Shown: piece after piece, positions 1 through 59,042 of the stretch
Numbering within the stretch: the first letter of the stretch is position 1
Layout: every line of letters begins with the position of its first letter
Assembly: GCA_963767925.1 (NCBI GenBank)
Contig: CAVYGB010000008.1
Location: forward strand, 1,056,001-1,120,000
Length of the DNA: 64,000 bases
Reading direction: 5' to 3'
Origin: an uncultured delta proteobacterium
Lineage (GTDB): Bacteria; Myxococcota_A; Polyangia; Fen-1088
Program-made: the position numbers and the translations under genes
The notes under the pieces: generated by a model
Databases searched by the model: none
What the model was told of the DNA's origin: nothing
What the model saw: only the letters and a program-made list of their open reading frames with translations

Positions 1-362
1 TCCAGGCGCAGCCCCCGCTGCCAGAGATCGCGCCAGACGAAGGCCTGCAGGCCCAGGAAGCCCGCGCTGGCCGCCCAGGCCAGGACCAGCCCGCCCGGGC
101 CCACCCGGCGACCCTGCCGGGACTGCTGGCGCGCCCGCTCCAGCCGGTAGCTCGCCAGGGCCATCAGGCCGGTGGCCAGCGCCGGCAACCCCAGGGGCAA
201 GGTGGGCAGGTCGGCGGGGGGCCAGGCGGTCGAACGGACCCGCACCAGCCCATAAGAGAAGAAGAGGGCCGCAAACAGCATCGCCCAGGAGGCCAGGAAC
301 AGGGTCATGCCCAGCAGGGCCGTCGTCTCCTGGTGCTGGCCGTCGGCACGGGCGGTGGCCAT
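1..362 (-). CDS. Cytochrome c oxidase subunit III-like protein, second copy (3' end runs off the window)
   Basis: Not in the ORF track. Read manually from ATG 362: MATARADGQHQETTALLGMTLFLASWAMLFAALFFSYGLVR...WPP, a COX3-type first helix. The start overlaps the subunit I stop (TGATG). Confidence 0.8.
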   Translation of the reverse strand, partial: MATARADGQHQETTALLGMTLFLASWAMLFAALFFSYGLVRVRSTAWPPADLPTLPLGLPALATGLMALASYRLERARQQSRQGRRVGPGGLVLAWAASAGFLGLQAFVWRDLWQRGLRL

Positions 363-2125
363 CAGGTTCCTCCGGCGGCCGCCGGCCGCCCCTCGGGCAG
401 GTCCTCGGTCTGGGCGATCCAGTCGCGGCCCAGGGTCGCCTTCACGGCGGGGTTGGACAGCTCGTGGGGTCCCCGCACCACGGTGGGGATGGGATCGAAG
501 TTGTGGACCGGGGGCGGGGAGGGCACCGTCCACTCGAGGGTGCCGACCTTCCAGGGGTTGGCCTCGGCGTTGGGCTTGCGAAAGACGTTGGCGAAGAAGT
601 TCACGACGAACAGGAGCTGGCTCGCCCCCAGGGCGAAGGCGAAGTAGCTCGTCAGGCGGTTGAGCGGGGCCAGGTGTTTGAGGAAGCCGTACTGGTGGGG
701 ATCCCAGAGCCGGCGGGGCTGCCCGGCGTACCCCGTGAAGAGCTGCCCGCAAAACAGCAGGGTGATGAACACGAGCGAGAGCCAGAAGTGGACCTTGCCC
801 AGCCGCTCGTCGAGCATCCGGCCGAACATCTTGGGGAACCAGAAGTGGATGGCGGCGAAGATGGCGAGGAAGGTGGCCGCCGCCATGATGAGGTGGAAGT
901 GCCCCACCACGAACATGGTGTCGTGCAGGTAGAGGTCGGTGGAGATAGTCGCCAGGTATAGGCCGGTCAGCCCCCCGATGGCGAACACCCAGACCACCCC
1001 CAGCGTGAACAACATCGGCGTCGAGGTGCGCATCGACCCCTTCCAGATGGTGTGCAGCCAGTTCAGGAACAGCAGCTCGGCGGGGGCGCTGATGATGAGG
1101 GTCAAGGTCATGAACGCCTTGCCCAGCATGGGGTTCATCCCGGTCGTGAACATGTGGTGCCCGTACACGACCGCCGAGAGCACGGTGATGAGGACCATGG
1201 CTCCCACCGAGCCCTTGTACCAGTAGGCGGGCTTGCGGGAGAAGAAGGCCACCAGGTCGCCGGTGAACCCCCAGGCCGGCAGGATCAGGATGTAGACCTC
1301 CGGGTGCCCGAAGATCCAGAACAGGTGCTGGAACAGGATGGGGTCGCCGCCGCCCCGCACCGAGGCGGCGCCGGCGATGAAGAACTGGGTCCCCAGCTCG
1401 CGATCGCTGAGCAGCAGCAAGGTCGCCGCCCCGAGCACGGGCACGAACAGGATGTTGAGGATCGACGTGAGCCACAGCCCCCAGACGGTCAGCGGCATCC
1501 GCAGGTAGGTCATCCCTGGCGCCCGGAAGCGGATGACCGTCACGACGTAGTTGATGGCTCCCATCACGGTGGCCACACCGGTGAAGAACAGCGCCGCCAC
1601 GACCAGGGTCTGCCCCATCCCGGGGGTGCCCACCCGGGTGGCGAGCGGCGGGTAGGTGGTCCAGCCGGCGGCGGCCGAGCCGAGCTGCACGAGGAAGGAG
1701 GCCACCACCAGGCAGAGCGACAGGGCGAAGGTCCAGAACGAGAGCATGTTGAGCCGGGGGAAGGCCATGTCCCGGGCCCCGATCATGAGGGGGATGGTGA
1801 AGTTGCCGAAGGCCCCGATCAGCAGCGGCGTCACGGCGAAGAAGATCATCACCAGGCCGTGCATCGTGAAGATGGCGTTGTAGGCCGCCGGGGAGATGAC
1901 CCCGCCCGATCGACTCAGCAGGAGGTCGCCCACCAGGGGGACCTTCTGGCCGGGATAGGCCCACTGCCAGCGGATGAGCATCGCCAGCAGGCCCCCGAAC
2001 AGCAGGAAGAGCAGCCCCGACCAGAGGAACTGCTTGGCGATGACCTTGTGGTCGGTGGAAAAAACGTAGCGCCGGACGAACGAGGTCGGCGGCGGGTGGA
2101 TGGGCTGCAGCTCGTCGCCGGTCAT
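362..2125 (-). CDS. ctaD: Heme-copper oxidase subunit I, A1-type with atypical K-channel
   Basis: STDHK, FTMHG, GARDMAFPRLN, GWTTYPPL, WIFGHPEVY, GHHMF, HDT..VVGHFH, PRR. True start is ATG 2125 (ATGA overlap with subunit II), inside track ORF 362..2941. Confidence 0.95.
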   Translation of the reverse strand: MTGDELQPIHPPPTSFVRRYVFSTDHKVIAKQFLWSGLLFLLFGGLLAMLIRWQWAYPGQKVPLVGDLLLSRSGGVISPAAYNAIFTMHGLVMIFFAVTPLLIGAFGNFTIPLMIGARDMAFPRLNMLSFWTFALSLCLVVASFLVQLGSAAAGWTTYPPLATRVGTPGMGQTLVVAALFFTGVATVMGAINYVVTVIRFRAPGMTYLRMPLTVWGLWLTSILNILFVPVLGAATLLLLSDRELGTQFFIAGAASVRGGGDPILFQHLFWIFGHPEVYILILPAWGFTGDLVAFFSRKPAYWYKGSVGAMVLITVLSAVVYGHHMFTTGMNPMLGKAFMTLTLIISAPAELLFLNWLHTIWKGSMRTSTPMLFTLGVVWVFAIGGLTGLYLATISTDLYLHDTMFVVGHFHLIMAAATFLAIFAAIHFWFPKMFGRMLDERLGKVHFWLSLVFITLLFCGQLFTGYAGQPRRLWDPHQYGFLKHLAPLNRLTSYFAFALGASQLLFVVNFFANVFRKPNAEANPWKVGTLEWTVPSPPPVHNFDPIPTVVRGPHELSNPAVKATLGRDWIAQTEDLPEGRPAAAGGT

Positions 2126-2967
2126 GGTGTGGGGTGCCCCTCGCGATCGTGGTTGGCGTGGCTCTCGGAATGGTCCTCTCCGTGTTGCTCGGCGTGGGCG
2201 CCGTGGCTCCCCTTCCAGTTCCAGCCCCACTGGGCGCCCTTGTCGTTGGGGTCGAAGCTCTCGCTCGAGAGGGCCGAGGCCTCGGCGGCCCAGGCGGCGT
2301 AGGCCTCGGCGCTCAGCACGACGAGCCGACCACGCATCTTGTAGTGGTTGACCCCGCAGTGCTGGGCGCAGGCGATGTCGAAGGCGCCGGTCTCCTTGGC
2401 CTGGAACCAGAGGCGGTTGATCATGCCCGGCACGGCATCCTGCTTGACGCGGAAGTTGGGCAACGAGAAGCTGTGCAGGACGTCGGTGGCGGCGAGCTGC
2501 AACAAGATGGGGGTGCCCACCGGCACCCGGATGTCGTTCATGCTGACGATGTCGTCGCGGCTGTTGAACCGACCGTCCGGGCCGGGGTAGCGGGCGTCCC
2601 AGGCCCACTGGCGGGCGTTGATCTCGATGCGCACGGCCCGGGGATCGGCCTCCACCGCGTCGAAGTTCCAGAAGGCGGCGTCGAGGTCGCGCAGGCCGTT
2701 GACGAAGAGGTTCCCGTCCACCACCACGAAGATCAGCAGCGAGAGCCCCAGGGCCTTGACCGTCTGCTTGCGGGCGTTGCCCTCGTCGTATTCGGCCCGG
2801 TGCCGGGGGCCGTGGAAGAAGGCCGCCCACAGGATCCAGACCAGCGTGGCGCCGAACATGATGAGCACGAACACGGTCGTCGACTTCAGCAGCCAGTCGA
2901 CCCGCCACCCGTCGACCGAGGCGTCGTGGGGCAACCCCCACCAGCCGGTCGAGGCCAGGGCGGTCAT
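2122..2967 (-). CDS. ctaC: Cytochrome c oxidase subunit II (CuA), His-rich C-terminal tail, no fused cytochrome c
   Basis: Two TM helices, ARQWAW, DVLHSF, KQDAVPG and CuA motif CAQHCGVNHYKM. ATG 2967 overlaps the upstream stop. Confidence 0.93.
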   Translation of the reverse strand: MTALASTGWWGLPHDASVDGWRVDWLLKSTTVFVLIMFGATLVWILWAAFFHGPRHRAEYDEGNARKQTVKALGLSLLIFVVVDGNLFVNGLRDLDAAFWNFDAVEADPRAVRIEINARQWAWDARYPGPDGRFNSRDDIVSMNDIRVPVGTPILLQLAATDVLHSFSLPNFRVKQDAVPGMINRLWFQAKETGAFDIACAQHCGVNHYKMRGRLVVLSAEAYAAWAAEASALSSESFDPNDKGAQWGWNWKGSHGAHAEQHGEDHSESHANHDREGHPTP

Positions 2968-3167
2968 CGACCGCGCTCCAGCTTGCGCACCACCTTGAAG
3001 GCCACCGCCGCCACCAGGTAAGGCACCGCGACGAGGGCGCCCACGAGCGCCAGCACGCCGTTGCCCGGCCCCTCCCGGGCGGCGCAGGCCGGGCAGGCCA
3101 GCGCGGCGCCCGGAGTCAGGCAAATCGCCAGAGCGGCGAGGGCGGCCAGGGCCCGCAGGAGGGTCAT
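2964..3167 (-). CDS. Small (67 aa) exported/membrane CxxC protein inside the oxidase operon
   Basis: MTLLRALAALAALAICLTPGAALA-CPAC-AAREGPGNG, then a TM helix and basic tail. ATGA overlaps at both ends fill the gap between subunits IV and II exactly. Confidence 0.8.
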   Translation of the reverse strand: MTLLRALAALAALAICLTPGAALACPACAAREGPGNGVLALVGALVAVPYLVAAVAFKVVRKLERGR

Positions 3168-3484
3168 GGCCCCGCCCTCCAGGCCGCCTCGGCGATGAGC
3201 ACCCCCGCGAAGAGGGCGGGCAGCAAGAACGGGATCACGACCGTGAGCTTGAGACCCCGGGTCTCGGCAGACAGGTGCATGAACTGCATCAGCACGAGCC
3301 CCGCCTTGGCCAGGGCCATCAGCACCAGGGCGGCCACCAGGAGCCCCTGGCCGATCCCCGGGATGTACACCACCCCGATCTCCAGGGCGGTGAGCAGGGT
3401 GAGCAGGCCGAACACCTGGAGATAGCGGCGGCGCGGGCTTCCGGTCGGGCCGTGGCCGTGGTCGTGGGTCTGGCTGTGGATCAT
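3164..3484 (-). CDS. ctaF: Cytochrome c oxidase subunit IV (CtaF/CyoD family)
   Basis: MIHSQTHDHGH...YLQVFGLLTLLTALE...AKAGLVLMQFMHL; three TM helices; FMHL motif; ATGA overlap at 3481-3484. Confidence 0.85.
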   Translation of the reverse strand: MIHSQTHDHGHGPTGSPRRRYLQVFGLLTLLTALEIGVVYIPGIGQGLLVAALVLMALAKAGLVLMQFMHLSAETRGLKLTVVIPFLLPALFAGVLIAEAAWRAGP

Positions 3485-4149
3485 CGGCCGGCCCCCGGGG
3501 GCGGGCTGGGGATGAGGTACACGAAGGTGAAGACGAGGATCCAGACCAGGTCGACGAAGTGCCAGAACAGGCCGACGCTCTCGATGGCGTCGGCGCGGGC
3601 CTCGACCGAGGGGCTGCGCAGCACCCGCGCCAGCATGACCCCCAGCAGGACGACGCCGGTGAAGACGTGGGCCCCGTGAAAGCTGGTGATGGCATAGAAG
3701 GTTGTGGCCCGGTGCGAATGCCCGAGCTGCAGCCCGCTGCCCGCGAGCCCACCCCCCACGATCCCGAAGTATTCGTGGTACTGCCCGACGAGGAAGAGCA
3801 GCCCACCCAGCATGGTGAGGGCCAGGAACCGGGCGCTGGCGCCCCGATTGCCCTCCCGGGCGGCGGCCACTGCCAGGACCATCGTCACGCTCGAGCAGAT
3901 CAGCAGGAAGGTCAGCCCGGCGGTGAAGTTGATCCCCAGGGGGGGCTCGCCGGGGGGCCACCAGCGGACGGAGGCTGCGCGCAGCACGCCATAGGCGATC
4001 AGCAGCCCCGAAAAGGAGAACGCGTCGGAGATGAGGAACATCCACATCCCCAGCTTGAGCGCCGAGGCGCGGCCGACGAATCGCTCGGGAGGCCACTTCA
4101 CAGCGGCGGTCGGAGCAGGGGAGGTCACGACGTCGCGCTGCCATAGCAT
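3481..4149 (-). CDS. ctaE: Cytochrome c oxidase subunit III
   Basis: KLGMWMFLISD, LICSS, TFYAITSFHGAHV, GLFWHFVDLVWILVFTFVY. Exact start uncertain (may be a downstream GTG). Confidence 0.92.
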   Translation of the reverse strand: MLWQRDVVTSPAPTAAVKWPPERFVGRASALKLGMWMFLISDAFSFSGLLIAYGVLRAASVRWWPPGEPPLGINFTAGLTFLLICSSVTMVLAVAAAREGNRGASARFLALTMLGGLLFLVGQYHEYFGIVGGGLAGSGLQLGHSHRATTFYAITSFHGAHVFTGVVLLGVMLARVLRSPSVEARADAIESVGLFWHFVDLVWILVFTFVYLIPSPPPGAGR

Positions 4150-4214: not shown

Positions 4215-5573
4215 ATGGAGCGCGCGGAGGAAGACCCCTATCGGCTCACGGCGGCCGACGTGCTCGAGCCGCCCCGCAGCCTGCCCGAGATCCTCCGCCG
4301 CATCGGACCCGGGATGATCCTGGCCGCCGCCATCGTGGGCTCGGGCGAGCTGATCGCGACGACCACGCTGGGCGCCGAGGAGGGTTACCGCCTCCTCTGG
4401 CTCATCATCCTGTCCTGCCTGATCAAGCCCATCGTGCAGGCGGAGCTGGGCCGCTACACAATCGCCACCGGGGAGCCGACCCTGGAGAGCCTCAGCCGGG
4501 TGCCGGGGCCGCGCTGGAAGGTGGGCTGGGTGGCCTGGGGCTGGGCGATCACGGTCCTCATCACGCTGCTCCAGGTCGGGGCCATGTACGGAGGCGTGGC
4601 CCAGGTGATGGCCTTGCTGGTTCCGGCGGTGCCCGTGCGGGCCTGGGTCGGCGTGTTCCTCGTGGTGACCCTCTTGCTCCTGCTGGGCGGCGGCTACCGG
4701 CGGGTCGAGCGGCTGGCGGTGGTCAAGGTGGGGCTGTTCACCTTGCTGACCGTGCTGGCCGCGGTCTTGCTGGTGCGGCGGCCGGAGTTCTCCGTCGCCC
4801 CCCTCCTGCAGGGCTTGCGCTTCGATCTGCCGATCTACGGCGTGGCGACCGCGGTGGCCGTCTTCGGGATCACCGGCGTCGGCACCAACGAGCTGGCCAT
4901 GTACCCCTACTGGTGCGTCGAGAAGGGGTACGCCCGCTTCAGCGGACCGCGCGACGGCAGCGCGGCCTGGGTTCGTCGCGCGCGCGGCTGGATCCGGGTG
5001 ATGCATGTCGACATCGTCGTGTCGCTGCTGGTCTACACCCTGGCCACCATCGCCTTTTACCTGCTGGGGGCGGGGGTGCTGCACAGCCAGGGGCTGGTAC
5101 CCCGGGGCAGCGACCTCATCGTCGTGCTGTCGCGCATCTACACCGAGACCCTGGGCGCCTGGGCGCTGCCGGTGTTCTACGCCGGGGCCATCGTCACCCT
5201 CTACGGGACCATCTTCGCCGCCACCGCGGCCCACGCCCGCATCTATGCGGATCTGTTTCGCCTGATGGGCGCCTTTGCCCGCGAGGACTTCGCGGCCCGC
5301 AGCCGGTATCGGCGCCGCCTGACCTGGGCCCTGACCCTGGTGCCGGTGGGCCTCTATTACCTGTTCGAATCACCGGTGAAGATGGTCGTCATCGGCGCTC
5401 TGGCGCAGTCGTTCATGCTGCCGGTGTTCGCCTTCGGAACCCTCTACCTGCAGCGCCGGCAGCTCCCGATCGAGCTGCGGCCCCGCCGCTTCGTGCGGGT
5501 GGCGCTCCTGCTGGCGGCCGTCGTCATCGCGCTGGTCATGTCCGTGTCGCTCGGAATCACCCTGCTCCGTTGA
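4215..5573 (+). CDS. Nramp-like (APC fold) divalent metal transporter
   Basis: GPGMILAAAIVGSGELIATT..GA..GY.LLW signature; about 11 TM helices. Confidence 0.8.
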   Translation: MERAEEDPYRLTAADVLEPPRSLPEILRRIGPGMILAAAIVGSGELIATTTLGAEEGYRLLWLIILSCLIKPIVQAELGRYTIATGEPTLESLSRVPGPRWKVGWVAWGWAITVLITLLQVGAMYGGVAQVMALLVPAVPVRAWVGVFLVVTLLLLLGGGYRRVERLAVVKVGLFTLLTVLAAVLLVRRPEFSVAPLLQGLRFDLPIYGVATAVAVFGITGVGTNELAMYPYWCVEKGYARFSGPRDGSAAWVRRARGWIRVMHVDIVVSLLVYTLATIAFYLLGAGVLHSQGLVPRGSDLIVVLSRIYTETLGAWALPVFYAGAIVTLYGTIFAATAAHARIYADLFRLMGAFAREDFAARSRYRRRLTWALTLVPVGLYYLFESPVKMVVIGALAQSFMLPVFAFGTLYLQRRQLPIELRPRRFVRVALLLAAVVIALVMSVSLGITLLR

Positions 5574-5621: not shown

Positions 5622-6299
5622 ATGTCGGCGTCGCTTCCGCGGGAAAACCAGCCCGTCCAGACGGCACGCCGGCGGCGCTGGTCCTGGCGCTTCGCCGGTA
5701 GTGCGCTCTTCTGGGGCGCGATCGTGGCGATCGGTCTGATCGTCCCGATCGCCACCCGGGTGTGGCGATCCGCGCCGCCGCCGCTGCCGGTGCTGGGCAC
5801 CTTGCCGGCGTTCAGCCTCGTCGACCAGGACGGCCGCACCACCGGCTCGGCCGACCTGCGCGGCTACGTCTGGGTGGCGAGCTTCCTCTTTACCCGCTGC
5901 CCGACCATCTGTCCCGCGCTGATGACCACCCTCGGCCGCGTGCAGCACCGGGCGCGCGGCATCGAACACGGCTTCCGGCTGGTCAGCTTCAGCGTCGATC
6001 CCCAGCACGACACGCCCGAGCGCCTGGCGGCCTACGCCCGGCAGCACCGGGCCAGCCCGCGCATGTGGAGGTTTCTCACCGGTCCCTTCGCCAGCGTGCA
6101 AAAGACGGTGGTCGACGGGCTGAAGATCGCCATGGGCGAGGTCGAGGGCCAGCAGGACTTCGCCAGCATCATGCACGGGACCCACTTCGTCCTGGTCGAC
6201 CAGCAGGGACGCATCCGCGGCTACTACGACTCGACCGGCGCCGACGTCGTGGACCGCCTGCTCATCGACGCCTCCTTGCTCATCAACCGCGGCGACTGA
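5622..6299 (+). CDS. SCO1/SenC family copper chaperone
   Basis: N-terminal TM, FSLVDQDG, FTRCPTICP (CxxxC), SVDP..DTP, conserved His in MHGTHFVLVD. Confidence 0.93.
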   Translation: MSASLPRENQPVQTARRRRWSWRFAGSALFWGAIVAIGLIVPIATRVWRSAPPPLPVLGTLPAFSLVDQDGRTTGSADLRGYVWVASFLFTRCPTICPALMTTLGRVQHRARGIEHGFRLVSFSVDPQHDTPERLAAYARQHRASPRMWRFLTGPFASVQKTVVDGLKIAMGEVEGQQDFASIMHGTHFVLVDQQGRIRGYYDSTGADVVDRLLIDASLLINRGD

Positions 6300-6310: not shown

Positions 6311-7640
6311 ATGGCCGAAGACCTGCAAGCCATGACCCGGGCCCGGTCGGTACGAGGCAAGCGCTTCGGCCGCTACCTCCTGCAGGAGCACCTGGCCTCG
6401 GGAGGCATGGCCGAGATCTTCCTGGCCCGCCTGCCCGGAGAGGGCGGCTTCGCCAAGGACCTGGTGCTCAAGATCCTGCAACAGCGCTACGCCGAGAGCC
6501 CGCAGGTCGTGCAGATGTTCATCGAGGAGGCGCGGCTGGGCGCGGAGCTCCGCCACCCCAACGTCGTCGACATCTACGAGAGCGGGGAGGAGAACGGGCT
6601 CCGCTTCATCGCCATGGAGTACATCGAGGGGCGCACGTTGACCGATTCTCGTGACCCGCGCCTTCGAGGTCTCGCAGCCGCTCCCCATCTCGTTCGCCGC
6701 CCACATCCTGGGGCAAGTCGCCGAGGGCCTAGCCTACCTCCAGGAAGGCCTACCGGGGCGGCCATACGCCCCCGGCCCGTCGGGGATCGTCCACCGCGAC
6801 ATCTCTCCGCCCAACATCCTCATCAGCTTCGCGGGCCACGCCAAGATAATCGATTTCGGCATCGCCCGTGCAGGCACCTCGGTCACCGTCGAGACGGGGG
6901 CACGGCCGGGCAAGTTGTCCTATATGTCTCCGGAGCAGGCGCAAGGGTTCCCCCTCGACGGGCGGTCCGACATCTTCTCCCTGGGAACCATCCTCTACGA
7001 GGTGACGCTGGGCCGACGCCTGTGGCGAGGGACCCCCGAGAGCGTGCTCCGCCGGATCGTTCACGAGGACCCCGAGCCGCCGACCTTCGTCAACCGGGCC
7101 TATCCTCCGACGCTCGAGCGGATCGTGCTGCGGGCCCTGGCCAAGCGTCCGGCCGATCGCTACGGCTCCGCCGGGGAGATGGCCCGGGACCTCGATCGCT
7201 TCCTCGGCGAAAGCGGTGAGCGGGTGGCTGATCGACACATCGCGCAGTTCATCCAGGGGCTCTACGTGCCCACCGCGCGCGTGAACGACGGCGGCAGCCA
7301 GCGGGCCCGCGACTTCCGCGACGAGGACGTCGCCCCCGATGAATACGATCAGCCGCTCGACTTCGACGGGCTTCGACCCCCGCCCGGCGTGGCGCACGCC
7401 CTTCGCGATTCGAACGTCTTCGACCTGGCGGCCCGGGCAGTGTCTGCGCCGCGGCAGGCGAGCGGAGTCCCCTGGGCCACGCCGCCTATCGGCGCCGCGG
7501 CGACGAGCCCCGAGCCGCTGACTCGTCTGTCCCTCGCGTCGGAGGAGCCGAGCTCCCGGGGGCGCCTGGCGGTGGGCATTCTGCTCATTTTGACGGCGCT
7601 CGTCCTCAGCGGCCTGTTTTTCGTCCTGAAAGGACCATGA
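6311..7640 (+). pseudogene. Hanks-type Ser/Thr protein kinase with C-terminal TM, split by a +1 frameshift near 6646 (real pseudogene or sequencing error)
   Basis: GAGGAG RBS then ATG 6311. First frame has GGMAEIF, VLK, FIEEAR, HPNVV, AMEYIEG. Second frame has HRDISPPN, DFG, YMSPEQ, DIFSLG. Removing one T from GATTCTC restores ...TDLVTRAFE. Confidence 0.85.
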
Positions 7641-30059: not shown

Positions 30060-30198
30060 CGCACAGAGTTTTAGGAATGGCTTGCACCGGTGTCAATGTG
30101 CGCGTGGGCGCGCGAACGCGCGCGATCAGCCGACCCGACCGACATCGAGCGCGGTCCGCGCCGGGGCCCTGGCCTCGACGCCGCGCCCGGCTTTGCAA

Positions 30199-30227
30199 TT
30201 GACGGGCGACCGGTCAACCACTATAAA
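30199..30227 (+). promoter_or_regulatory. Sigma70-type promoter for the nuo operon
   Basis: TTGACG (30199-30204), 17 bp spacer, TATAAA (30222-30227), 21 nt upstream of the nuoA ATG. Confidence 0.7.
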
Positions 30228-30248
30228 TCCCGGCGTTCGAGAGACACG

Positions 30249-30650
30249 ATGAGCTCCGACTACCTAGCAGCAGCGATCGCCATCATCGCCGGGGTCGGAA
30301 TGGCGTTGCTCCTCACCCTGGCATCCAAATACCTCGGACCCAGCCGTCCGACCAAGGCGAAGGCCATCCCGTACGAGGCCGGCTCCGATGTCATCGGCAG
30401 CCCGCGCGCACGGTTCTCGGTGAAGTTCTACCAGGTTGCCATTCTGTTTCTGGTGTTCGACATCGAGGCGGCCTTCCTCTACCCCTGGGCGGTCAACTAC
30501 CGCGCGCTGTCCTGCAAGGGACCGCTCGCCGGTGGCGTCTGCACGGCGGGCGTGTCCTTGTTCGGTCTCGGCGGCGTCCTGGTCTTCATGAGCCTCCTCG
30601 TCGTGGCGCTGGCCTACGTCTGGCGGAAGCGCGCGGTAGGCTGGGAGTAA
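30249..30650 (+). CDS. nuoA: NADH-quinone oxidoreductase subunit A
   Basis: K..PYEAG, FSVKFY.VAILFLVFDIE..FLYPWA, YVWRK..WE. Confidence 0.94.
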   Translation: MSSDYLAAAIAIIAGVGMALLLTLASKYLGPSRPTKAKAIPYEAGSDVIGSPRARFSVKFYQVAILFLVFDIEAAFLYPWAVNYRALSCKGPLAGGVCTAGVSLFGLGGVLVFMSLLVVALAYVWRKRAVGWE

Positions 30651-30664
30651 AGGAGCAACCGACC

Positions 30665-31189
30665 ATGGGATTCGACGTCTACACCAGCAAGCTCGCCGAC
30701 GCGGTCAACTGGGCCCGGAAGTTCTCCCTCTTCAACTACCCGTTCGTGACGGCCTGTTGCGGGATGGAGTTCATGGCCACCGCCGGCCCGAAGTACGACC
30801 TCGCGCGCTTCGGCTCCGAGTTCCCTCGCTTCTCGCCCCGCCAGGCCGACATGCTGGTGGTGGTCGGCACGATCACCGAACGGCAGGGGCCGGCCCTCCG
30901 CCGCATCTACGATCAGATGTGCGAGCCCAAGTGGGTAATGGCCTTCGGCGTCTGCGCCTCGACGGGGGGCTTTTACCAGAACTACTCGACCATGCCGGGC
31001 TGCGACCAGGTCATCCCCGTCGACGTGTACATCCCCGGCTGCCCGCCCCGGCCCGAGCAGGTCCTCGATGGCCTCATGATGCTGCAGGAGCGCATCCAGC
31101 GCGGCGAGGGCCACAGCCAGGTCACCCTCAAGGCAGAGCGGGGCTACGACGTGCCGATCGCCGCCATCCGGCCGATCGGCCAGCGTTGA
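30665..31189 (+). CDS. nuoB: NADH-quinone oxidoreductase subunit B
   Basis: TACCGME, SPRQAD, GVCASTGG, VDVYIPGCPPRPE. Confidence 0.96.
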   Translation: MGFDVYTSKLADAVNWARKFSLFNYPFVTACCGMEFMATAGPKYDLARFGSEFPRFSPRQADMLVVVGTITERQGPALRRIYDQMCEPKWVMAFGVCASTGGFYQNYSTMPGCDQVIPVDVYIPGCPPRPEQVLDGLMMLQERIQRGEGHSQVTLKAERGYDVPIAAIRPIGQR

Positions 31190-31247
31190 GCGCGAGCACC
31201 CCCCCGAGACACCCGGCACGAGCAACCCGACAGACGAAAAAAGGGCC

Positions 31248-31742
31248 ATGGCGCAGATCATCCTCGACCGGCTCAGCCAGACCTTCACCGGCGGTGAGAT
31301 CCTCGAGAGCGGCTCCTCGCTGGGAAACGAGTGGGCCCGCATCCGGACCGACGCCTGGGCGGCGGTGGCGCGTTTCCTCAAGGAAGACACCGTCACCAAC
31401 CTGGACATGTTCGTCGATCTGACCTGCGTCGATCGCTTCGGGCGAGAGCCACGGTTCGACGTCGTCCTGCACCTCTACTCCCTGGACAAGAAGCACCGGG
31501 TGCGGCTCTACGCCGGGGTGTCCGAGGAAGATCCCACCATCGAGACCCTGGTGCCGATGTGGCTGGGCGCCGACTGGTTCGAGCGGGAGGCTTTCGATCT
31601 CTATGGCGTCCGCTTCATGGGCCACCCCGACCTGCGGCGCATCCTCATGTACCCGGAGTTCGTGGGCCACCCCTTGCGCAAGGACTATCCCAAGGAGAAG
31701 CGGCAGCCGCTGGTCCGCCGCGAACCAGGTAAAGTGGACTAG
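31248..31742 (+). CDS. nuoC: NADH-quinone oxidoreductase subunit C
   Basis: [36 protein letters not shown]. Confidence 0.95.
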
Positions 31743-31748
31743 GTAACG

Positions 31749-33035
31749 ATGGCGACCAACAGCAGCACGACCAGCGGGGTGCCGGCCACGACCGCCACTC
31801 CGACCAGCCGCCGGATGGTCCTCGGCATCAAGGACGCGGCCGACCTCGACGAGCCGGAGCTCCCCTCCGAGACGATGCCCCTCAACATGGGCCCCTCCCA
31901 CCCGGCCATGCACGGAACCGTGCGGATGGTGCTGGAGGTCGAGGGGGAGAAGATCGTCTCGGCCGACGTGCAGGTGGGGTACCTGCACCGCTGCTTCGAG
32001 AAAGAATCGGAGTACGCTACCTACACCCAGATCTTCCCTTACACCGATCGCCTAAACTACGTCTCGCCGATGTTGAACAACGTCGGCTACGCCCTGGCGG
32101 TGGAGAAGCTGCTGGGGGTCGAAAAGGCGGTGCCCGAGCGCGCGCAGTACATCCGGGTGATCGTGGGGGAGGTGTCCCGCATCTGCGATCACCTCACCTG
32201 CCTGGGCGCGGGGGCCATGGAGCTGGGCGCCTTCGGCCCCTTCCTCTACAACCTCAAGTTCCGGGAGTGGCTGTGGGAGCTCCTCGAGGAGATCTCGGGC
32301 GCCCGCCTCACCCACAGCTATCTCCGCATCGGCGGCGTCTCGGGGGACATGCCCGAGGGCTGGGCGGACAAGCTGCGGGACGTCTTCGCCCGCGGCCGGA
32401 CGGTGCTGGCCGAGGTCGACAAGCTGCTCACGCGCAACCGGATCTTCCGGGATCGCATGGACGGCATCGGCATCATCACCCGCGAGGACGTGGCCCAATA
32501 CGGGCTGACCGGGCCGATGGCCCGCTCGGCCGGGGTGGCCTACGACATCCGCAAGGACCACCCCTACCTGGTCTACGACCGCTTCGACTTCGACGTCCCC
32601 GTGGGGTCGGTGGGGGACAACTTCGATCGCTTTGCCGTGCGGGTCGAGGAGATGCACCAGTCCATGCGCATCGTCGAGCAGGCGCTCGATCAGATCCAGC
32701 CGGGCCCCACCTTGCTCAACGATCCCCGCATCGTGCTGCCGGCCAAGAGCGAGACCTACAACAGCATCGAGGCCATGATCTCGCACTTCAAGCTGATCAT
32801 GGACGGGATCCGGGTCCCCGCCGGAGAGATCTACTCCTTCACCGAAGGGGGCAACGGGGAGCTCGGCTTTTACATCGTGTCCGACGGAACTGGACGACCC
32901 TGGAAATGCCGGGTGCGTCCCCCCAGCTTCGCCAATACGGCGATCCTCAACAGGCTGCTGGTCGGTCTGTTCATAGCCGACGTGGTCCCCACCTTCGGCA
33001 TGATCAACATGATCGGTGGGGAGTGTGACCGCTGA
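31749..33035 (+). CDS. nuoD: NADH-quinone oxidoreductase subunit D
   Basis: [42 protein letters not shown]. Confidence 0.96.
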
Positions 33036-34678
33036 TGCCCGATCCCAGCCAGAGCTCGACCGCCCCCAAGACCCCGCCACCACCTGCCAGCCCGGCCGCG
33101 CCGGCGCCCGAGACGGTGACGGTGAACATCGACGGACGGGCCCATCAGTTCCCCAAGGGGACCAACCTGCTGGAGGCCTGCAACGAGGTCGGGTGCAACG
33201 TACCCTTCTTCTGCTACCACGAAGGGCTCTCCTCGCCCGCCGTCTGCCGCCAGTGCCTGGTGGAGGTCAAGGGCCAGCCCAAGCCGGTGCCTTCCTGCTA
33301 CACGCCGGTGGCCGACAAGATGGAGGTGAGGACCAACTCGAAGTGGGTGCTGGACATCCGGCGCCAGATGCTCGAGTTCACCCTGCTCAACCACCCCATC
33401 GATTGCCCCATCTGCGACAAGGCGGGTGAGTGCACCCTGCAGAAGCACTACTTCGACTGGGACGCCAAGTTTGCCCGCAACGACGGGATCAAGGTCGAGA
33501 AGGACAAGGTCGTCGACATCGGCCGGCACATCGTCCTCGACCAGGAGCGATGCATCCTCTGCACCCGCTGCATCCGGGTCTGCGACGAGGTGGCCAAGCA
33601 GCCCGAGCTGACGATGGCCAAGCGTGGGGACCACGAGGTGCTCACCACCGCCCCCGGCCGGCGCCTGGACAACCCCTATTCGCTCAACACGGTCGACGTC
33701 TGCCCGGTGGGCGCCTTGACCTCCAAGGACTTCCGCTTCGCCATGCGGGCCTGGGAGCTGATGTCGACCCCCTCGGTGTGCAACGGCTGTGCCACGGGGT
33801 GCAACGTCGAGGTGCACGGATCGCGCAACCAGATCTACCGACTGGTGCCCCGGCAGAACGACGCGGTCAACAAGCACTGGATGTGCGACGAAGGCCGCTT
33901 CACCTACAAGGCCATCAACGACCGCCGGCTGGCCGTCCCCCTTTCGGGGGGCGTGCCGGTGGACTGGGATCGGGCTCTCGAGGACGCCGCCGCCCGCCTG
34001 CGCGCGGTCCGCGAGAAGTCGCCCGGCGGGCTGGGCGTGATCTTCTCGGCCGGGTCGAGCAACGAGGATCTGCACGCCCTGGCTCGCCTGGCCTTCGATA
34101 ACCTGCAGGTCGACCGGGCCTACCTGGTGGGTCGAGGCGAGGGCTGGTTCGACGACATCCTCGTGAGCGCGGACAAGAACCCGAACACGGCTGGCGCCAA
34201 GGCCATCGGCGGCCCCGGGCTCAAGACCGTCTCCGATCTGAGCCGCGACCTGCGCGACGGCGCGCTCTCGGCTTTGCTCGTCGTTGGTGACGAGGGGGTC
34301 CTGCGCGGCGCCGAGCCGGCGGCCTTCCCCTGGGAGCGGCTCGAGGCCCTCATCGTCCTGGCCAGCCACCAGGGCCCGCTGGTGGACGCGGCCCAGGTGG
34401 CCCTGCCCCTGGCGCTCTGGGCAGAGGTCGACGGGACCGTCACCAACCGCACCGGCCGGGTCCAGCGCATGCGCGCCGCCCTCGAGCCGGCCGGCGACGC
34501 CCTGCCGGGCTGGGAGATCCTCTCTCACCTGGCCCACCGCCTGGGCATCGCCATGGACCTCGAGACGGCCAAGAAGGTCTTCCTCGAGGCCCAGCAGAAG
34601 TACCCCTTCATGAAAGGCGCCGAGTGGGGCCGCCCGATGCTGCCGGTGCAGCTCCGGTTCGCCAACACACGAGGCTGA
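33035..34678 (+). CDS. nuoG: NADH-quinone oxidoreductase subunit G, short form (547 aa)
   Basis: FCYH...CRQC, HPIDCPICDKAGEC, CILCTRC..CPVGAL, CNGCATGC..MCDEG Fe-S motifs. Confidence 0.88.
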   Translation: MPDPSQSSTAPKTPPPPASPAAPAPETVTVNIDGRAHQFPKGTNLLEACNEVGCNVPFFCYHEGLSSPAVCRQCLVEVKGQPKPVPSCYTPVADKMEVRTNSKWVLDIRRQMLEFTLLNHPIDCPICDKAGECTLQKHYFDWDAKFARNDGIKVEKDKVVDIGRHIVLDQERCILCTRCIRVCDEVAKQPELTMAKRGDHEVLTTAPGRRLDNPYSLNTVDVCPVGALTSKDFRFAMRAWELMSTPSVCNGCATGCNVEVHGSRNQIYRLVPRQNDAVNKHWMCDEGRFTYKAINDRRLAVPLSGGVPVDWDRALEDAAARLRAVREKSPGGLGVIFSAGSSNEDLHALARLAFDNLQVDRAYLVGRGEGWFDDILVSADKNPNTAGAKAIGGPGLKTVSDLSRDLRDGALSALLVVGDEGVLRGAEPAAFPWERLEALIVLASHQGPLVDAAQVALPLALWAEVDGTVTNRTGRVQRMRAALEPAGDALPGWEILSHLAHRLGIAMDLETAKKVFLEAQQKYPFMKGAEWGRPMLPVQLRFANTRG

Positions 34679-34679
34679 G

Positions 34680-35816
34680 ATGGACGCGAACCCGGGACTC
34701 TTCTCTTACGGCCAGCCTGGCTTCTGGGCCGTGGCGGCGGCGATCAAGGTCCTCTACCTGATGCTGGCCATCGGGCCGGGCGTGGCCTCGATCCTCACCT
34801 GGCTCGAGCGGCGCCAGTCCTCGATGATGCAGGACCGGCTGGGACCCAACCGGGCCAACATCGGTCCCTTCCGCGCCTGGGGCATCACCCACTTCCTGGC
34901 CGACGCCCTCAAGTTCCTCTTCAAGGAGGACTTCGTGCCGCCCAAGGCGCACAAGTTCCTCTTCGCGCTGGCCCCCATCTTGGCCCTGGCCCCCGCCCTG
35001 ATCGTGGCGGCCATCTTGCCGTTCGGTCCCCCTCTGTGCTGGGGCCAGCTCCTGGAGGCGGTGCCGCCGGGGCAATGCGCCCAGCCCATCGATCTGCAGA
35101 TCGCCCGGCTCGACGTCGGCATCCTCTTCTACTTTGCCATCGCCTCGCTGTCGGTCTACGGCGCGACCCTGGCGGGCTGGGCCTCGTACAACAAGTGGGC
35201 GCTGATGGGCGGCCTGCGGGCCAGCTCTCAGATGGTCTCTTACGAGGTGACGATGGGCATGGCGGTGCTGGCCATGTTCCTGTTTTACGGGACCCTCGAG
35301 CCGGGGGCGATGGTCGCCCAGCAGGGGGGGCTGCCCTGGGACTGGGGCATCTTCGGGGTGCCTCAGTTCATCGCCTTCGTGCTGTTCCTGACGGCGGCCA
35401 TCGCCGAGACCAAGCGCACCCCCTTCGACATCCCGGAAGGCGAGCCGGAGATCATCGGGTACTTCGTGGAGTATTCGGGCCTCCGCTTCGGCATGTTCTT
35501 CCTCGGGGAGTTCATCGAGATCGTCTTCTCGAGCGCGCTCATGGTGACGATCTTCCTGGGGGGCTGGCACCTTCCTCTGCCGATCGGCGTCGAGCAGCAG
35601 CTCGCGGCGAGCATCCCCAACATCGCCTACGTCCTGATGGTCCACGGCTGGTGGCTGGCCAAGGTCTTCGTGTTCTGCGCCTTCCAGCTCCTGCTGCGCT
35701 GGTCGTTGCCCCGCTTCCGGCCGGATCAGCTCATGCAGCTCGGCTGGCAGCGGCTGCTGCCCATCTCCATCGCCAATGTCCTCATCGCCGCGTCCTGGAT
35801 TCTGCTAACCCAGTAG
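34680..35816 (+). CDS. nuoH: NADH-quinone oxidoreductase subunit H
   Basis: ERR..QDRLGPN, ADALK, GGLRASSQMVSYE, AETKRTPFD..EGE, EYSG, PRFRPDQLM. Confidence 0.96.
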   Translation: MDANPGLFSYGQPGFWAVAAAIKVLYLMLAIGPGVASILTWLERRQSSMMQDRLGPNRANIGPFRAWGITHFLADALKFLFKEDFVPPKAHKFLFALAPILALAPALIVAAILPFGPPLCWGQLLEAVPPGQCAQPIDLQIARLDVGILFYFAIASLSVYGATLAGWASYNKWALMGGLRASSQMVSYEVTMGMAVLAMFLFYGTLEPGAMVAQQGGLPWDWGIFGVPQFIAFVLFLTAAIAETKRTPFDIPEGEPEIIGYFVEYSGLRFGMFFLGEFIEIVFSSALMVTIFLGGWHLPLPIGVEQQLAASIPNIAYVLMVHGWWLAKVFVFCAFQLLLRWSLPRFRPDQLMQLGWQRLLPISIANVLIAASWILLTQ

Positions 35817-35834
35817 GGAGTCGAGAACCATCCA

Positions 35835-36479
35835 ATGGCCGTCGGAGTCATAGTCGTCGCCCGCCCGGGGAGCTTCTCCCAGCAGATGTATTTGCCTGCC
35901 ATCGCCGAAGGGCTGGGAGTCACCTTCCGGCACTTCATGAAAAACTGGATCGGGAACATCACCGGGCGGCGTCACAAGACCGATATCGTCACCGTGCAGT
36001 ACCCCGAGGAGAAGGTGCCGTACCCGGCCCGCTTCCGCGGCCTGCACCGGCTCATGTTGCGCGACGATGGGGAGGTGCGGTGTGTGGCCTGCATGATGTG
36101 CCCCACCGTCTGCCCCGCCCACTGCATCACGATCGTGCCCGAGGAGGCCCCGGACGGACGTATCGAGAAGCGTCCCAAGATCTTCGAGATCGACGAGCTT
36201 CGCTGCGTCGTCTGTGGCCTGTGTGCCGAGGCCTGCCCTTGTGACGCCATCCGGATGGACACGATGGAGCACGCCAAGCCGACCTACCGTCGCGCCGACG
36301 CCGTCCTCGACAAGGAGGAGCTGCTCTCGCGCGGCGCCAAGTCCATCGCGGTCCAGGGCGGGGTGGGGGGGTTCTGGCGGGAGAAGCTGAACGGGCAGAG
36401 CCAGACCCCGCCCGAGGGTGCGGTGGTGCCCGCTGGGGCTCCAACCGGGCCCCCCGCCGTCTCCAAAGCGGGCCCTTGA
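35835..36479 (+). CDS. nuoI: NADH-quinone oxidoreductase subunit I
   Basis: TVQYPEE, RFRG.H, CVACMMCPTVCP and CVVCGLCAEACP. Confidence 0.95.
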   Translation: MAVGVIVVARPGSFSQQMYLPAIAEGLGVTFRHFMKNWIGNITGRRHKTDIVTVQYPEEKVPYPARFRGLHRLMLRDDGEVRCVACMMCPTVCPAHCITIVPEEAPDGRIEKRPKIFEIDELRCVVCGLCAEACPCDAIRMDTMEHAKPTYRRADAVLDKEELLSRGAKSIAVQGGVGGFWREKLNGQSQTPPEGAVVPAGAPTGPPAVSKAGP

Positions 36480-58064: not shown

Positions 58065-58598
58065 TCACGACGGGCGGGCGAGGGCTCGCCGCCGGGGGAA
58101 CAGACAGCTCCGCATCTGCTCGACCGGCACGTCGAATCGGCGGGCCAGCTCGGCGAGCACGAGCGGCGCCAGGCGTCCTTCGGGCGGGCGGGCGAAGGCC
58201 TCGACGAGGGCCCCGTCGAGCGCTTCCCCGGCCAGGAGCTCGGCCCGCGCCACAACCTCCGCCCCGACCGTGGCCCGGGCCGCCCGCCCGCGCCGGACCG
58301 TGGGGTCACCCTTGACCAGCAGGGCGGCGGTCATGAGGCGGTGGAAGGCCGCGATCCAGCCCATCCACGGCTCGGATGGCCCGCCCTCCGCGGCCAGCCG
58401 GGCGGCCCGCGCCCGCCGCAGGAGCTCGGCGGGTCCCAGCGTGTCGAGCTCCCGCAGCGAACCGGGGAAGCGCCGGGCGAGCTGGCGCAGCTCCTCCCGG
58501 GTGGCCTCCGGGCCTCCGCCGTCGCGCCGGGTGCGCAGGTGCACCAGGGCGTCGTACTTGTCTGCGAGCGCCAAGAGCTCGGCCGAGATCGGCGCCAT
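58065..58598 (-). CDS. Hypothetical protein (177 aa)
   Basis: Start at ATG 58598 (MAPISAELL...FPGSLRELD...) with TATACT 6 nt upstream; fills the gap between glgP and the cupredoxin gene. Confidence 0.62.
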   Translation of the reverse strand: MAPISAELLALADKYDALVHLRTRRDGGGPEATREELRQLARRFPGSLRELDTLGPAELLRRARAARLAAEGGPSEPWMGWIAAFHRLMTAALLVKGDPTVRRGRAARATVGAEVVARAELLAGEALDGALVEAFARPPEGRLAPLVLAELARRFDVPVEQMRSCLFPRRRALARPS

Positions 58599-58619
58599 CG
58601 ATGTAGTATACCGACCGTC
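58599..58619. promoter_or_regulatory. 21-bp divergent intergenic with overlapping -10 hexamers
   Basis: TATACT on - strand (58610-58605) and TAGTAT on + strand (58604-58609); no Shine-Dalgarno for either gene. Confidence 0.55.
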
Positions 58620-59042
58620 ATGAGCAAGCTCCGGGTCCACGTTCTGGTGGCTCTCGTCCTCGCCGTGGGGGCGTGCAAGAAGAATCAGCCGGCGGCGCCG
58701 CCCCCGTCCCCCGCGCCCGCGGCCGAGCCCGCCCCGCCTGCCCAGCCCCCGGCCCCCGCGGTGCCGTCGGCGTCGGGCAAGGTCGAGATGACCATCACGG
58801 AGGAGGGGTTCGTGCCGAGCCGCATCCTGGCGAAGGCTGGCCAGCCCCTGATCCTCGCCATCACCCGGAAGGCCGAGCGGACCTGCGCCACCGAGATCCT
58901 GTTTCACGGCCAGGAGGGCAAGACCGACCTGCCCCTCAACAAGACGGTCGAGGTGACCTACGTGCCCAAGTCGAGCGGACCGGTCAAGTTCGGCTGCGCG
59001 ATGGGCATGATGATCGGCGGCGTGATCGAGGTCAGCCCGTGA
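58620..59042 (+). CDS. Cupredoxin-domain lipoprotein (CupA-like)
   Basis: AVGAC lipobox, Pro linker, GFVPSRI..AGQP, TCATE, FGCAMGM..G.I.V. Confidence 0.82.
   Translation: MSKLRVHVLVALVLAVGACKKNQPAAPPPSPAPAAEPAPPAQPPAPAVPSASGKVEMTITEEGFVPSRILAKAGQPLILAITRKAERTCATEILFHGQEGKTDLPLNKTVEVTYVPKSSGPVKFGCAMGMMIGGVIEVSP

Follow-up and report, generated by a model that had tools for sequence, protein, structure and literature searches.

Textbooks treat the K-channel lysine as a requirement of A-type heme-copper oxidases, the mitochondrial enzyme included. The stretch of DNA considered here (the window, 64,000 nucleotides of contig CAVYGB010000008.1 from an uncultured member of the Polyangia) carries near its beginning a gene for an A1-type subunit I, COX1, in which this lysine is replaced by leucine. 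The query enzyme is a member of a distinct and conserved subfamily without the lysine, and it is the product of neither error nor decay. We favour, with some reserve, the view that it is an A1 cytochrome c oxidase reducing O2 to water, in which the K pathway would have been rebuilt from clade-specific residues and the D channel would still pump protons. Judged by its sequence, the query enzyme probably has both O2 reductase activity and proton pumping. The parts of the gene on which this view depends are given below; query residues are numbered from Met=1 and, around helix VIII, the query number is that of Rhodobacter sphaeroides minus 10.

365..2125, minus strand: COX1, A1-type heme-copper oxidase subunit I without the K-channel Lys, 587 amino acids
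1256..1306, minus strand: helix VI, His274-Asp290 (GHPEVYILILPAWGFTGD), with a CuB His, Glu276, Tyr278, Trp285, Gly289 and Asp290
1154..1210, minus strand: helix VII, Ser306-His324, with Ser306, Thr314, Ser317, Ala318 and Tyr321, followed by CuB His323/His324
1052..1102, minus strand: helix VIII segment, residues 342-358 (T-L-I-I-S346-A-P-A349-E350-L-L352-F-L-N355-W-L-H358), placed by ungapped alignment to solved oxidases

Both the fold and the sequence assign the query subunit I to the A family, with an intact A1 catalytic core and a complete D channel. The COX1 product matches Pfam COX1 with 435.5 bits (cut-off 34.8) and the NCBIfam model TIGR02891 (CtaD_CoxA) with 577.1 bits; the latter score lies under the curated cut-off of 670.75, and the product is therefore a divergent member of the A family. 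Among solved subunit I chains searched with HMMER, the best match in the PDB was 7jro_a (400.6 bits), R. sphaeroides 1m56_A gave an E-value of 1.4e-111, and B-family ba3 chains reached only about 25-35 bits. AlphaFold2, run on an alignment of 63 sequences, gave a model (mean predicted local distance difference test score 91.4, predicted template modelling score 0.92) that was compared with known structures by Foldseek. The best match was 2gsm_A with a template modelling (TM) score of 0.90, and the canonical A1 aa3 enzymes of R. sphaeroides and Paracoccus denitrificans (1m56, 2gsm, 1ar1) fell in the range of 0.90-0.92 at 38-40% identity to the query. A search of the ESM Atlas with the same product returned generic COX1 clusters only. 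Residues were counted over 133 rows of an inner (Glu) branch and 13 outer members, 146 clade rows altogether, and compared with 73 Lys-type rows. The heme and CuB ligands, identified by alignment to solved chains, are His89, His274, His323, His324, His409 and His411, and each is present in 133/133 rows of the inner branch. The same is true of Glu276 and Tyr278 of the GHPEVY motif. Tyr278, the active-site tyrosine, is located in helix VI four residues past the CuB histidine, and would be the partner in a covalent His-Tyr link. The D-channel residues Asp119, Asn108, Asn126, Asn192 and Ser129 (Asp132, Asn121, Asn139, Asn207 and Ser142 in R. sphaeroides) as well as Arg471/472 are likewise found in 133/133 rows; changes in the lining of this channel relative to R. 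sphaeroides are Ser200/Ser201 to Ala/Thr and Tyr33 to Phe. The motifs VVYGHH and HDTMFVVGHFH are also present. These six histidines, the Glu/Tyr pair, the D-channel residues and the two altered motifs had all been named by the original prediction, made from the letters alone, and each of them is found in the translation and the alignments.

The key observation concerns helix VIII. The minus-strand translation through this region reads MTLTLIISAPAELLFLNWLH, and the three best HMMER alignments to solved A-family chains run through it without gaps, setting the query's 'tliisapaellflnw' opposite 'tmiiavptgikifsw' of 7jro_a. Accordingly placed, K362 corresponds to Leu352 (codon CTG, 1072-1070), G360 to Glu350 (codon GAG, 1078-1076) and T359 to Ala349, and the column of S299 is occupied by Gly289. 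These replacements and their codons had been proposed from a manual alignment, with which the ungapped alignments and the minus-strand reading agree. The query thus lacks Lys362, Thr359 and Ser299, the canonical K-channel residues; those of helix VIII are replaced, and Glu350 and His358 are new at their positions. Query residues Lys361/362 stand at the cytoplasmic end of the helix, where Lys-type enzymes have lysine too.

The loss of the lysine is shared by a whole lineage. No lysine was found in residues 342-358 in any of the 146 clade rows (0/146), including the column of K362 and its neighbours. Position 352 is Leu in 133/133 inner rows and Leu, Phe or Ile in the 13 outer ones, as against Lys in 73/73 Lys-type rows. 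A word-indexed search gave at least 120 homologues, at 71-94% identity, with the same helix VIII pattern; the source names among the matches listed were Polyangia, Polyangiaceae, Myxococcota, Myxococcales and Minicystis metagenome-assembled genomes (MAGs), plus one Planctomycetes, and most matches were unnamed. A genome scan returned 80 loci, 22 of which (L001-L021 and L054) are relatives with at least 50% identity. Each of these 22 is a MAG record; Myxococcota predominate, and Bacteriovoracaceae, Planctomycetia and Omnitrophota contribute one each. The lineage is accordingly one of mostly Myxococcota, with members in MAGs of Bdellovibrionota, Planctomycetota and Omnitrophota. In a FastTree phylogeny of 144 rows the query falls in a clade of 40 rows with support 100, every row of which lacks the lysine. 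In a quick IQ-TREE phylogeny (LG+G4) of 58 rows picked from these 144, the clade comprises 22 rows with SH-aLRT 100 and contains a group of 20 rows with Tyr321 ('VYGHH') supported at 96. Both trees were built with the helix VIII columns included, and over a sampling that did not extend to named Bacteriovorax or Halobacteriovorax proteins or to the Acidithiobacillus rus sequences. The Bacteriovoracaceae MAG L017 (PSGIFFLNW, VVYGHH) is inside the query's clade in both of them.

With these data, an explanation by decay, sequencing error or a pseudogene retains next to no probability, and is refuted because the pattern is conserved. The gene has an uninterrupted reading frame, coupled translationally to its neighbours, the catalytic residues are invariant, and the close homologues share the query's helix VIII in place of the PTGxK motif that an isolated error would leave in them. 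The suggestion that the gene represents a distinct subfamily is thereby borne out by the absence of the helix VIII lysine in all clade rows, by the clade support and by the recurrence of the operon. The accompanying statement that K362, T359 and S299 are near-invariant in the A family went too far: 31 rows outside the query's clade, in several separate groups of the 144-row tree, lack the lysine as well, and such groups already appear in the accessible part of an earlier catalogue (PMC8239418).

A second line of evidence comes from polar residues that are specific to the clade. In the inner branch, helix VII carries Ser/Thr306 (133/133), Thr/Ser314 (132/133), Ser317 (133/133), a small Ala318 (131/133) and Tyr321 (133/133, and also 11/13 outer rows), at columns where Lys-type enzymes hold Met, Gly/Ala, Gly, Phe and Trp, respectively. 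Trp285 and Asp290 of helix VI are found in 146/146 clade rows; among Lys-type rows Phe stands at 285 in 59/73 and residues at 290 are mixed. Ser346 is present in all 146 clade rows, Asn355 in 133/133 inner rows, and a basic residue (Lys/Arg) at position 304 in 131/133 inner and 13/13 outer rows. Three residues are restricted to the inner branch, namely Ala349 (133/133), Glu350 (125/133) and His358 (118/133). The glycine at the S299 column is a different matter. It is correct for the query and fails as a trait of the clade, since the 133 inner rows hold Ser in 55, Thr in 38, Gly in 28, Ala in 5 and other residues in 7, so that the query's Gly is a minority state. At the neighbouring position 288, Thr is found in the query alone.

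Inner and outer members differ in some of these residues. Outer members have Ser/Thr at the T359 column in 11/13 rows and Glu350 in 0/13; losing the T359 hydroxyl and gaining Glu350 are therefore linked. Among inner rows, the 125 with Glu350 have His358 in 117 cases and Arg358 in 8. In the 8 rows without Glu350, the residues at 350/358 are Met/Met (4), Gln/Tyr (2, identical sequences), Val/Arg (1) and Ile/His (1), and thus 7/8 also lack His358. This co-variation is suggestive of a functional link between positions 350 and 358. The Glu350/His358 pair is specific to the Myxococcota branch and appears to be undescribed.

B- and C-family oxidases (ba3, cbb3) use a single, Lys-free K-analogue channel. 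By analogy with them, it is proposed that in the query enzyme a Lys-independent route, lined by hydroxyl and carboxyl groups, admits the protons for the cycle's reductive half. The entry of this route would be near the cytoplasmic ends of helices VI-VIII, at Asp290, Lys/Arg304, Ser306 and His358. From there, it might lead up helix VII (Thr314, Ser317, the small Ala318 and Tyr321) and helix VIII (Glu350, Ser346) to Tyr278 and CuB, and the D channel would go on serving pumping. The Glu350/His358 pair may be a later addition in the Myxococcota branch, made together with the loss of the Thr359-equivalent hydroxyl. Close to Tyr278 in that branch, Glu350 would stand in for the Thr hydroxyl that was lost, and a cytoplasmic station would be provided by His358.

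The genes that accompany COX1 in the window are arranged as an operon, with a transporter and a copper chaperone on the opposite strand beyond its upstream end.

3484..4149, minus strand: COX3a, five-helix subunit III-like protein, first gene of the operon (Pfam COX3 71.1 bits; NCBIfam CyoC/CtaE-type matches below cut-off)
3167..3487, minus strand: COX4_pro, small subunit IV (Pfam PF03626 54.2 bits; NCBIfam caa3_sub_IV 41.1 bits, cut-off 37.25)
2125..2970 (about), minus strand: COX2, CuA subunit II (Pfam COX2 59.6 bits; HMMER to R. sphaeroides subunit II 84 bits); its start is uncertain because the reading frame is open up to 3123
3..362, minus strand: COX3b, second subunit III-like gene, cut by the window start (weak NCBIfam match)
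4215-5570, plus strand: Nramp-family transporter
5622..6296, plus strand: SCO1/SenC copper chaperone (Pfam PF02630 92.5 bits)

The translational coupling that had been read from the sequence is confirmed by start/stop overlaps at three junctions: ATGA between COX3a and COX4, ATGA (4 bases) between COX2 and COX1, and TGATG (one base) between COX1 and COX3b. Searches of related loci by tblastn with the window proteins found the full order COX3a-COX4-COX2-COX1-COX3b in 8/23 (L001, L003-L007, L009 and L010) and partial versions in L002, L008 and L012; COX3b follows COX1 in relatives too, and the outer members have a COX2-COX1 core beside other neighbours. A SCO1 match adjoins the operon in L001-L005 and L012. 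According to a Pfam scan of the flanks of three loci (L003, L004, L010), a c-type cytochrome gene stands directly after COX3b in 3/3, and upstream of the operon in L004 there are a UbiA-family (heme O synthase-like) gene and SCO1.

In subunit II, the CuA ligands His, Cys, Cys, His and Met align to those of R. sphaeroides; the first is the His in VLHSF and the others belong to C-A-Q-H-C-G-V-N-H-Y-K-M. The CuA loop is CAQHC in the query versus CSELC in R. sphaeroides. The glutamate of this loop also ligates Mg in model enzymes, and its position is Gln in 18/21 clade rows. The glutamate at the K-channel entry of subunit II (Glu101 column) is found in 55/55 Lys-type loci and 0/21 clade rows, in a transmembrane stretch where the alignment is weak; under the same weak alignment, the column holds Asp in 6/21 clade rows (L011, L013-L016 and L018) and Gln in the query.

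Several points weigh against the rebuilt-pathway reading. K362 mutants of model enzymes lose O2 turnover, and we know of no member of the clade that has been assayed. Glu350 gives way to Met, Gln, Ile or Val in 8/133 inner rows and is missing from 13/13 outer ones; the clade as a whole therefore cannot depend on it. The co-variation of Glu350 with position 358 rests on perhaps three or four independent events. Judged by helical periodicity, Glu350 is turned about 160 degrees away from the side of helix VIII that bears K362; a path through it, if real, would thus be displaced toward helix VII. In the proposed route, Glu350 and His358 would line a common cavity with the helix VII stripe. In addition, a sister group inside the clade that is devoid of a D channel keeps the helix VII stripe partly (Ser317 in 4/6, Thr/Ser314 in 4/6).

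The main competing explanation is that the enzyme is an O2 reductase without any K-type pathway, in which all chemical and pumped protons would pass through the D channel and the polar residues would have structural or other roles. We regard it as unlikely, yet worth serious weighing, since the D channel and Glu276 are conserved in 133/133 rows, Leu352 and Phe353 turn the canonical K site hydrophobic, and in some lineages Glu350/His358 are swapped for Met/Met. Against it, at least seven polar positions of helices VI-VIII are fixed in the clade, exactly where the K-analogue channels of other families run. Moreover, the sister group, which lacks the D-channel Asp/Asn and sometimes Glu276, keeps Tyr321 in 6/6 rows and most of the stripe; a lost D channel together with a kept stripe does not fit easily with the D channel as the clade's sole route. 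The same sister group underlies another possibility, to which we give a slightly smaller chance still. The 'VYGHH' lineage without the lysine could be a separate functional class of A-derived enzymes with a re-invented proton input in helices VII/VIII, marking a stepwise transition from two channels to one. On the A1 scaffold this input would consist of Tyr321, Ser317 and Thr314, with the Glu350/His358 relay added in the Myxococcota branch, and would be convergent with the B and C families. As the D-channel Asp/Asn, and even Glu276, are missing from sister members too, this transition would be recorded in the lineage as it took place naturally. Its end point might be a one-channel enzyme with another pumping stoichiometry, or a non-pumping one, possibly with an altered substrate preference.

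The original prediction had offered either rewired proton delivery or different chemistry, with nitric oxide (NO) or peroxide as examples. Rewiring is made plausible by the clade-specific polar residues; the alternative chemistry found no support, as the tyrosine, the ligands, the D channel and CuA are all kept. An NO reductase, or a cytochrome c peroxidase-like enzyme needing no K pathway, is in our estimation improbable. In its favour, the K pathway has its role in the reductive phase, and in model enzymes peroxide gets round the block imposed by K362M; the D channel is also lost in relatives from the wider clade, and the Mg-ligand Glu of subunit II is mostly Gln in the clade, as described above. 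It is also reported that A-, B- and C-family oxidases show some NO reductase activity (PMC11214002, in its available part). Against it, Tyr278 and all three CuB histidines are invariant, the D channel and Glu276 are conserved as is expected of a pump, and the combination of CuA with a neighbouring cytochrome c is what oxidases usually show. Scanning with Pfam revealed no match to nir, nor or nos families among 62 open reading frames (ORFs) of the window, nor among 32 ORFs of three related loci.

Oxidases of the A family without the lysine are not new in themselves. They were catalogued by Degli Esposti et al. (Front Microbiol 2021, PMC8239418; preprint of 2020, 10.1101/2020.03.01.968255), whose accessible text and tables include an A1 subclade, 'Oligoflexia: Bacteriovorax and other taxa', entered as 'no, KC' for the K-channel; the 'KC-channel' concept comes from the same authors. 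The novelty implied by the original prediction was overstated to this extent. Names beginning with Myxococc-, Polyangi- or Sorangi- do not occur in the available supplements of that paper, and our search for literature on A-family oxidases without the lysine, or on K and D channels of Myxococcota, found nothing beyond the preprint and its 2021 version. What appears to be new here is the Glu350/His358 Myxococcota branch; what was already known is that A1 oxidases without the lysine exist, catalogued and biochemically unstudied.

A closely similar published pattern is that of the Bacteriovorax and Halobacteriovorax A1 rows, which according to the available tables have, in P. denitrificans numbering, Tyr at Y280, Phe/Leu at K354, Asn at S357, Asp at E292 and Ser at G319, with the subunit II Glu replaced (PMC8239418). 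The query corresponds to it with Tyr278, Leu352, Asn355, Asp290 and Ser317. The rows of Halobacteriovorax and Bacteriovorax stolpii (Tyr, Ser, Phe, Ser, Asn, Asp) match outer clade members such as L017, and to judge from this pattern the Bacteriovorax-type A1 group falls within the query's clade via this Bacteriovoracaceae MAG. One difference lies in helix VIII: the Bacteriovorax-type rows in that source have Ser at the T351 column followed by Gly, and outer rows including L017 have Ser/Thr there, whereas the query has Ala349-Glu350. The query's Myxococcota branch is distinguished from the Bacteriovorax type by Ala349 and Glu350, and also by His358, Tyr301 and Trp302.

Enzymes without the lysine were also described in acidophilic Fe(II) oxidisers, where, in the accessible part of the catalogue, K354 of COX1 is hydrophobic, Glu78 of COX2 is replaced and the D channel is retained; COX1 of the Acidithiobacillus rus operon has Ile at K354 in the supplementary table (PMC8239418). 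The rus-operon aa3 is the terminal O2-reducing oxidase of Acidithiobacillus ferrooxidans, as reported, in the portion available, from an Fe-oxidising/O2-reducing supercomplex and in vitro reconstitution (PMC2754497). By analogy, it may be taken as a precedent for O2 reduction without the channel lysine. Like the query, it combines a hydrophobic residue in place of Lys with a replaced subunit II Glu and a kept D channel; unlike the query, it is of the A2 type, belongs to another branch of the family, has Thr at T351 and lacks the Tyr321/Glu350/His358 signature (PMC8239418, same tables).

When the comparison is made with canonical A1 aa3 enzymes, the query shares with them the six histidines, the GHPEVY Glu/Tyr, the D-channel Asp/Asn, the Arg pair, the subunit I Mg-site His/Asp and a CuA subunit II. 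It differs by Lys362 to Leu, Thr359 to Ala, Gly360 to Glu, Trp331 to Tyr and Phe295 to Trp, by the change of helix VII Gly/Met/Phe to Thr/Ser/Ala, by the replacement of both the entry Glu and the Mg-ligand Glu of subunit II, and by the presence in its operon of two five-helix subunit III-like proteins. The latter feature raised the question of a coxMNOP-type alternative oxidase; no literature was found that ties this type to K-channel loss. In its proposed principle, a Lys-free proton path of Ser/Thr/Tyr/Glu and water, the query resembles ba3 and cbb3, although it is of the A family and keeps both the D channel and the helix VI tyrosine. The active-site tyrosine of cbb3 sits in helix VII. Heme-copper NO reductases (NORs; cNOR, qNOR, bNOR, eNOR, sNOR, gNOR and nNOR) are members of the same superfamily, and in some of them proton channels have disappeared or been modified; their relationships are with the B or C families, with the cross-linked Tyr missing or a CuB ligand changed (an extra Glu, or Asp for His), as stated in the accessible part of PMC11214002. 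The query, as an A-family enzyme that keeps Tyr and three CuB His, is unlike them. An identity as sNOR, gNOR or eNOR, raised by the nearby SenC/SCO1 gene and the missing channel, was rejected.

A large conserved lineage that lacks the lysine and has a D channel is a natural experiment on which protons need which channel and on how a path is rebuilt. The Myxococcota branch gives specific residues for such work (Glu350, His358, Tyr321, Thr314, Ser317 and Asp290), and the sister branch without the D channel is a complementary case. This value is tempered by the earlier cataloguing, by the fact that at least one such oxidase (Acidithiobacillus) reduces O2, and by the origin of every genome-borne member found from a MAG.

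It is also worth describing further features of the operon and of the rest of the window. The C-terminus of COX2 (window 2125-2340, minus strand) has the motif YDPxDxxAHWGWxW, conserved in the clade in most relatives, followed in the query only by a His-rich tail (GSHGAHAEQHGEDHSESHANHDREGHPTP). The N-terminus of COX4 (window 3430-3487, minus strand) opens with a His-rich stretch, MIHSQTHDHGHG. A few hundred bases past SCO1 there is a Ser/Thr protein kinase gene (window 6651-7637, plus strand), a homologue of which (47-56% identity) lies immediately upstream of the oxidase genes, on the other strand, in L011-L015. In the Planctomycetia MAG L019 (10001-12250), the COX1 frame has 745 residues and a subunit III-like match overlaps its end, which suggests a fused subunit I+III; L006 was listed alongside it. 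The rest of the window consists of housekeeping genes, including nuo, mreBCD and PBP2/RodA. The nuo cluster (window 30090-36476, plus strand) comprises nuoA, nuoB, (nuoC), nuoD, a NuoG-like Fe-S/molybdopterin protein, nuoH and nuoI; a Pfam scan over all but short ORFs gave no match to NuoE or NuoF between nuoD and the NuoG-like gene. At a great distance from the oxidase operon, an ORF with a cupredoxin-like domain (window 58341-59039, plus strand) matches PF13473 with 33.1 bits.

The alignments also contain other unusual oxidases. The sister group inside the clade that lacks the D-channel residues is formed by P0122, P0123, P0131, P0146, P0164 and P0221 (also P0133, P0173 and P0194), with motifs such as GARGMALPRLT, GARNLAFPRIS and GRARPAHPGLH at the D channel. 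Some of its members have lost the A1 glutamate too (GHPQVY, GHPAVY). Tyr278, Tyr321 and the paired CuB histidines are retained throughout the group, whose enzymes would be devoid of both canonical proton channels. A further, independent group of the A family, about 650-850 residues long (P0165, P0188, P0207, P0213, P0234, P0235, P0243, P0254, P0258, P0259 and P0261) has Gln, His or Ala at the K362 column (e.g., PSGVQIFAW) and the motif GLWVHH. Further groups without the lysine have a helix VIII that opens with 'TELISIP', or reads 'TMIISIPSVIILTCL' in combination with AHPEVY. In two A-like sequences, P0143 and P0269, the CuB His pair reads 'WGQH', with the first His changed to Gln, and the A1 glutamate is absent (THPALY, LHPAAY).

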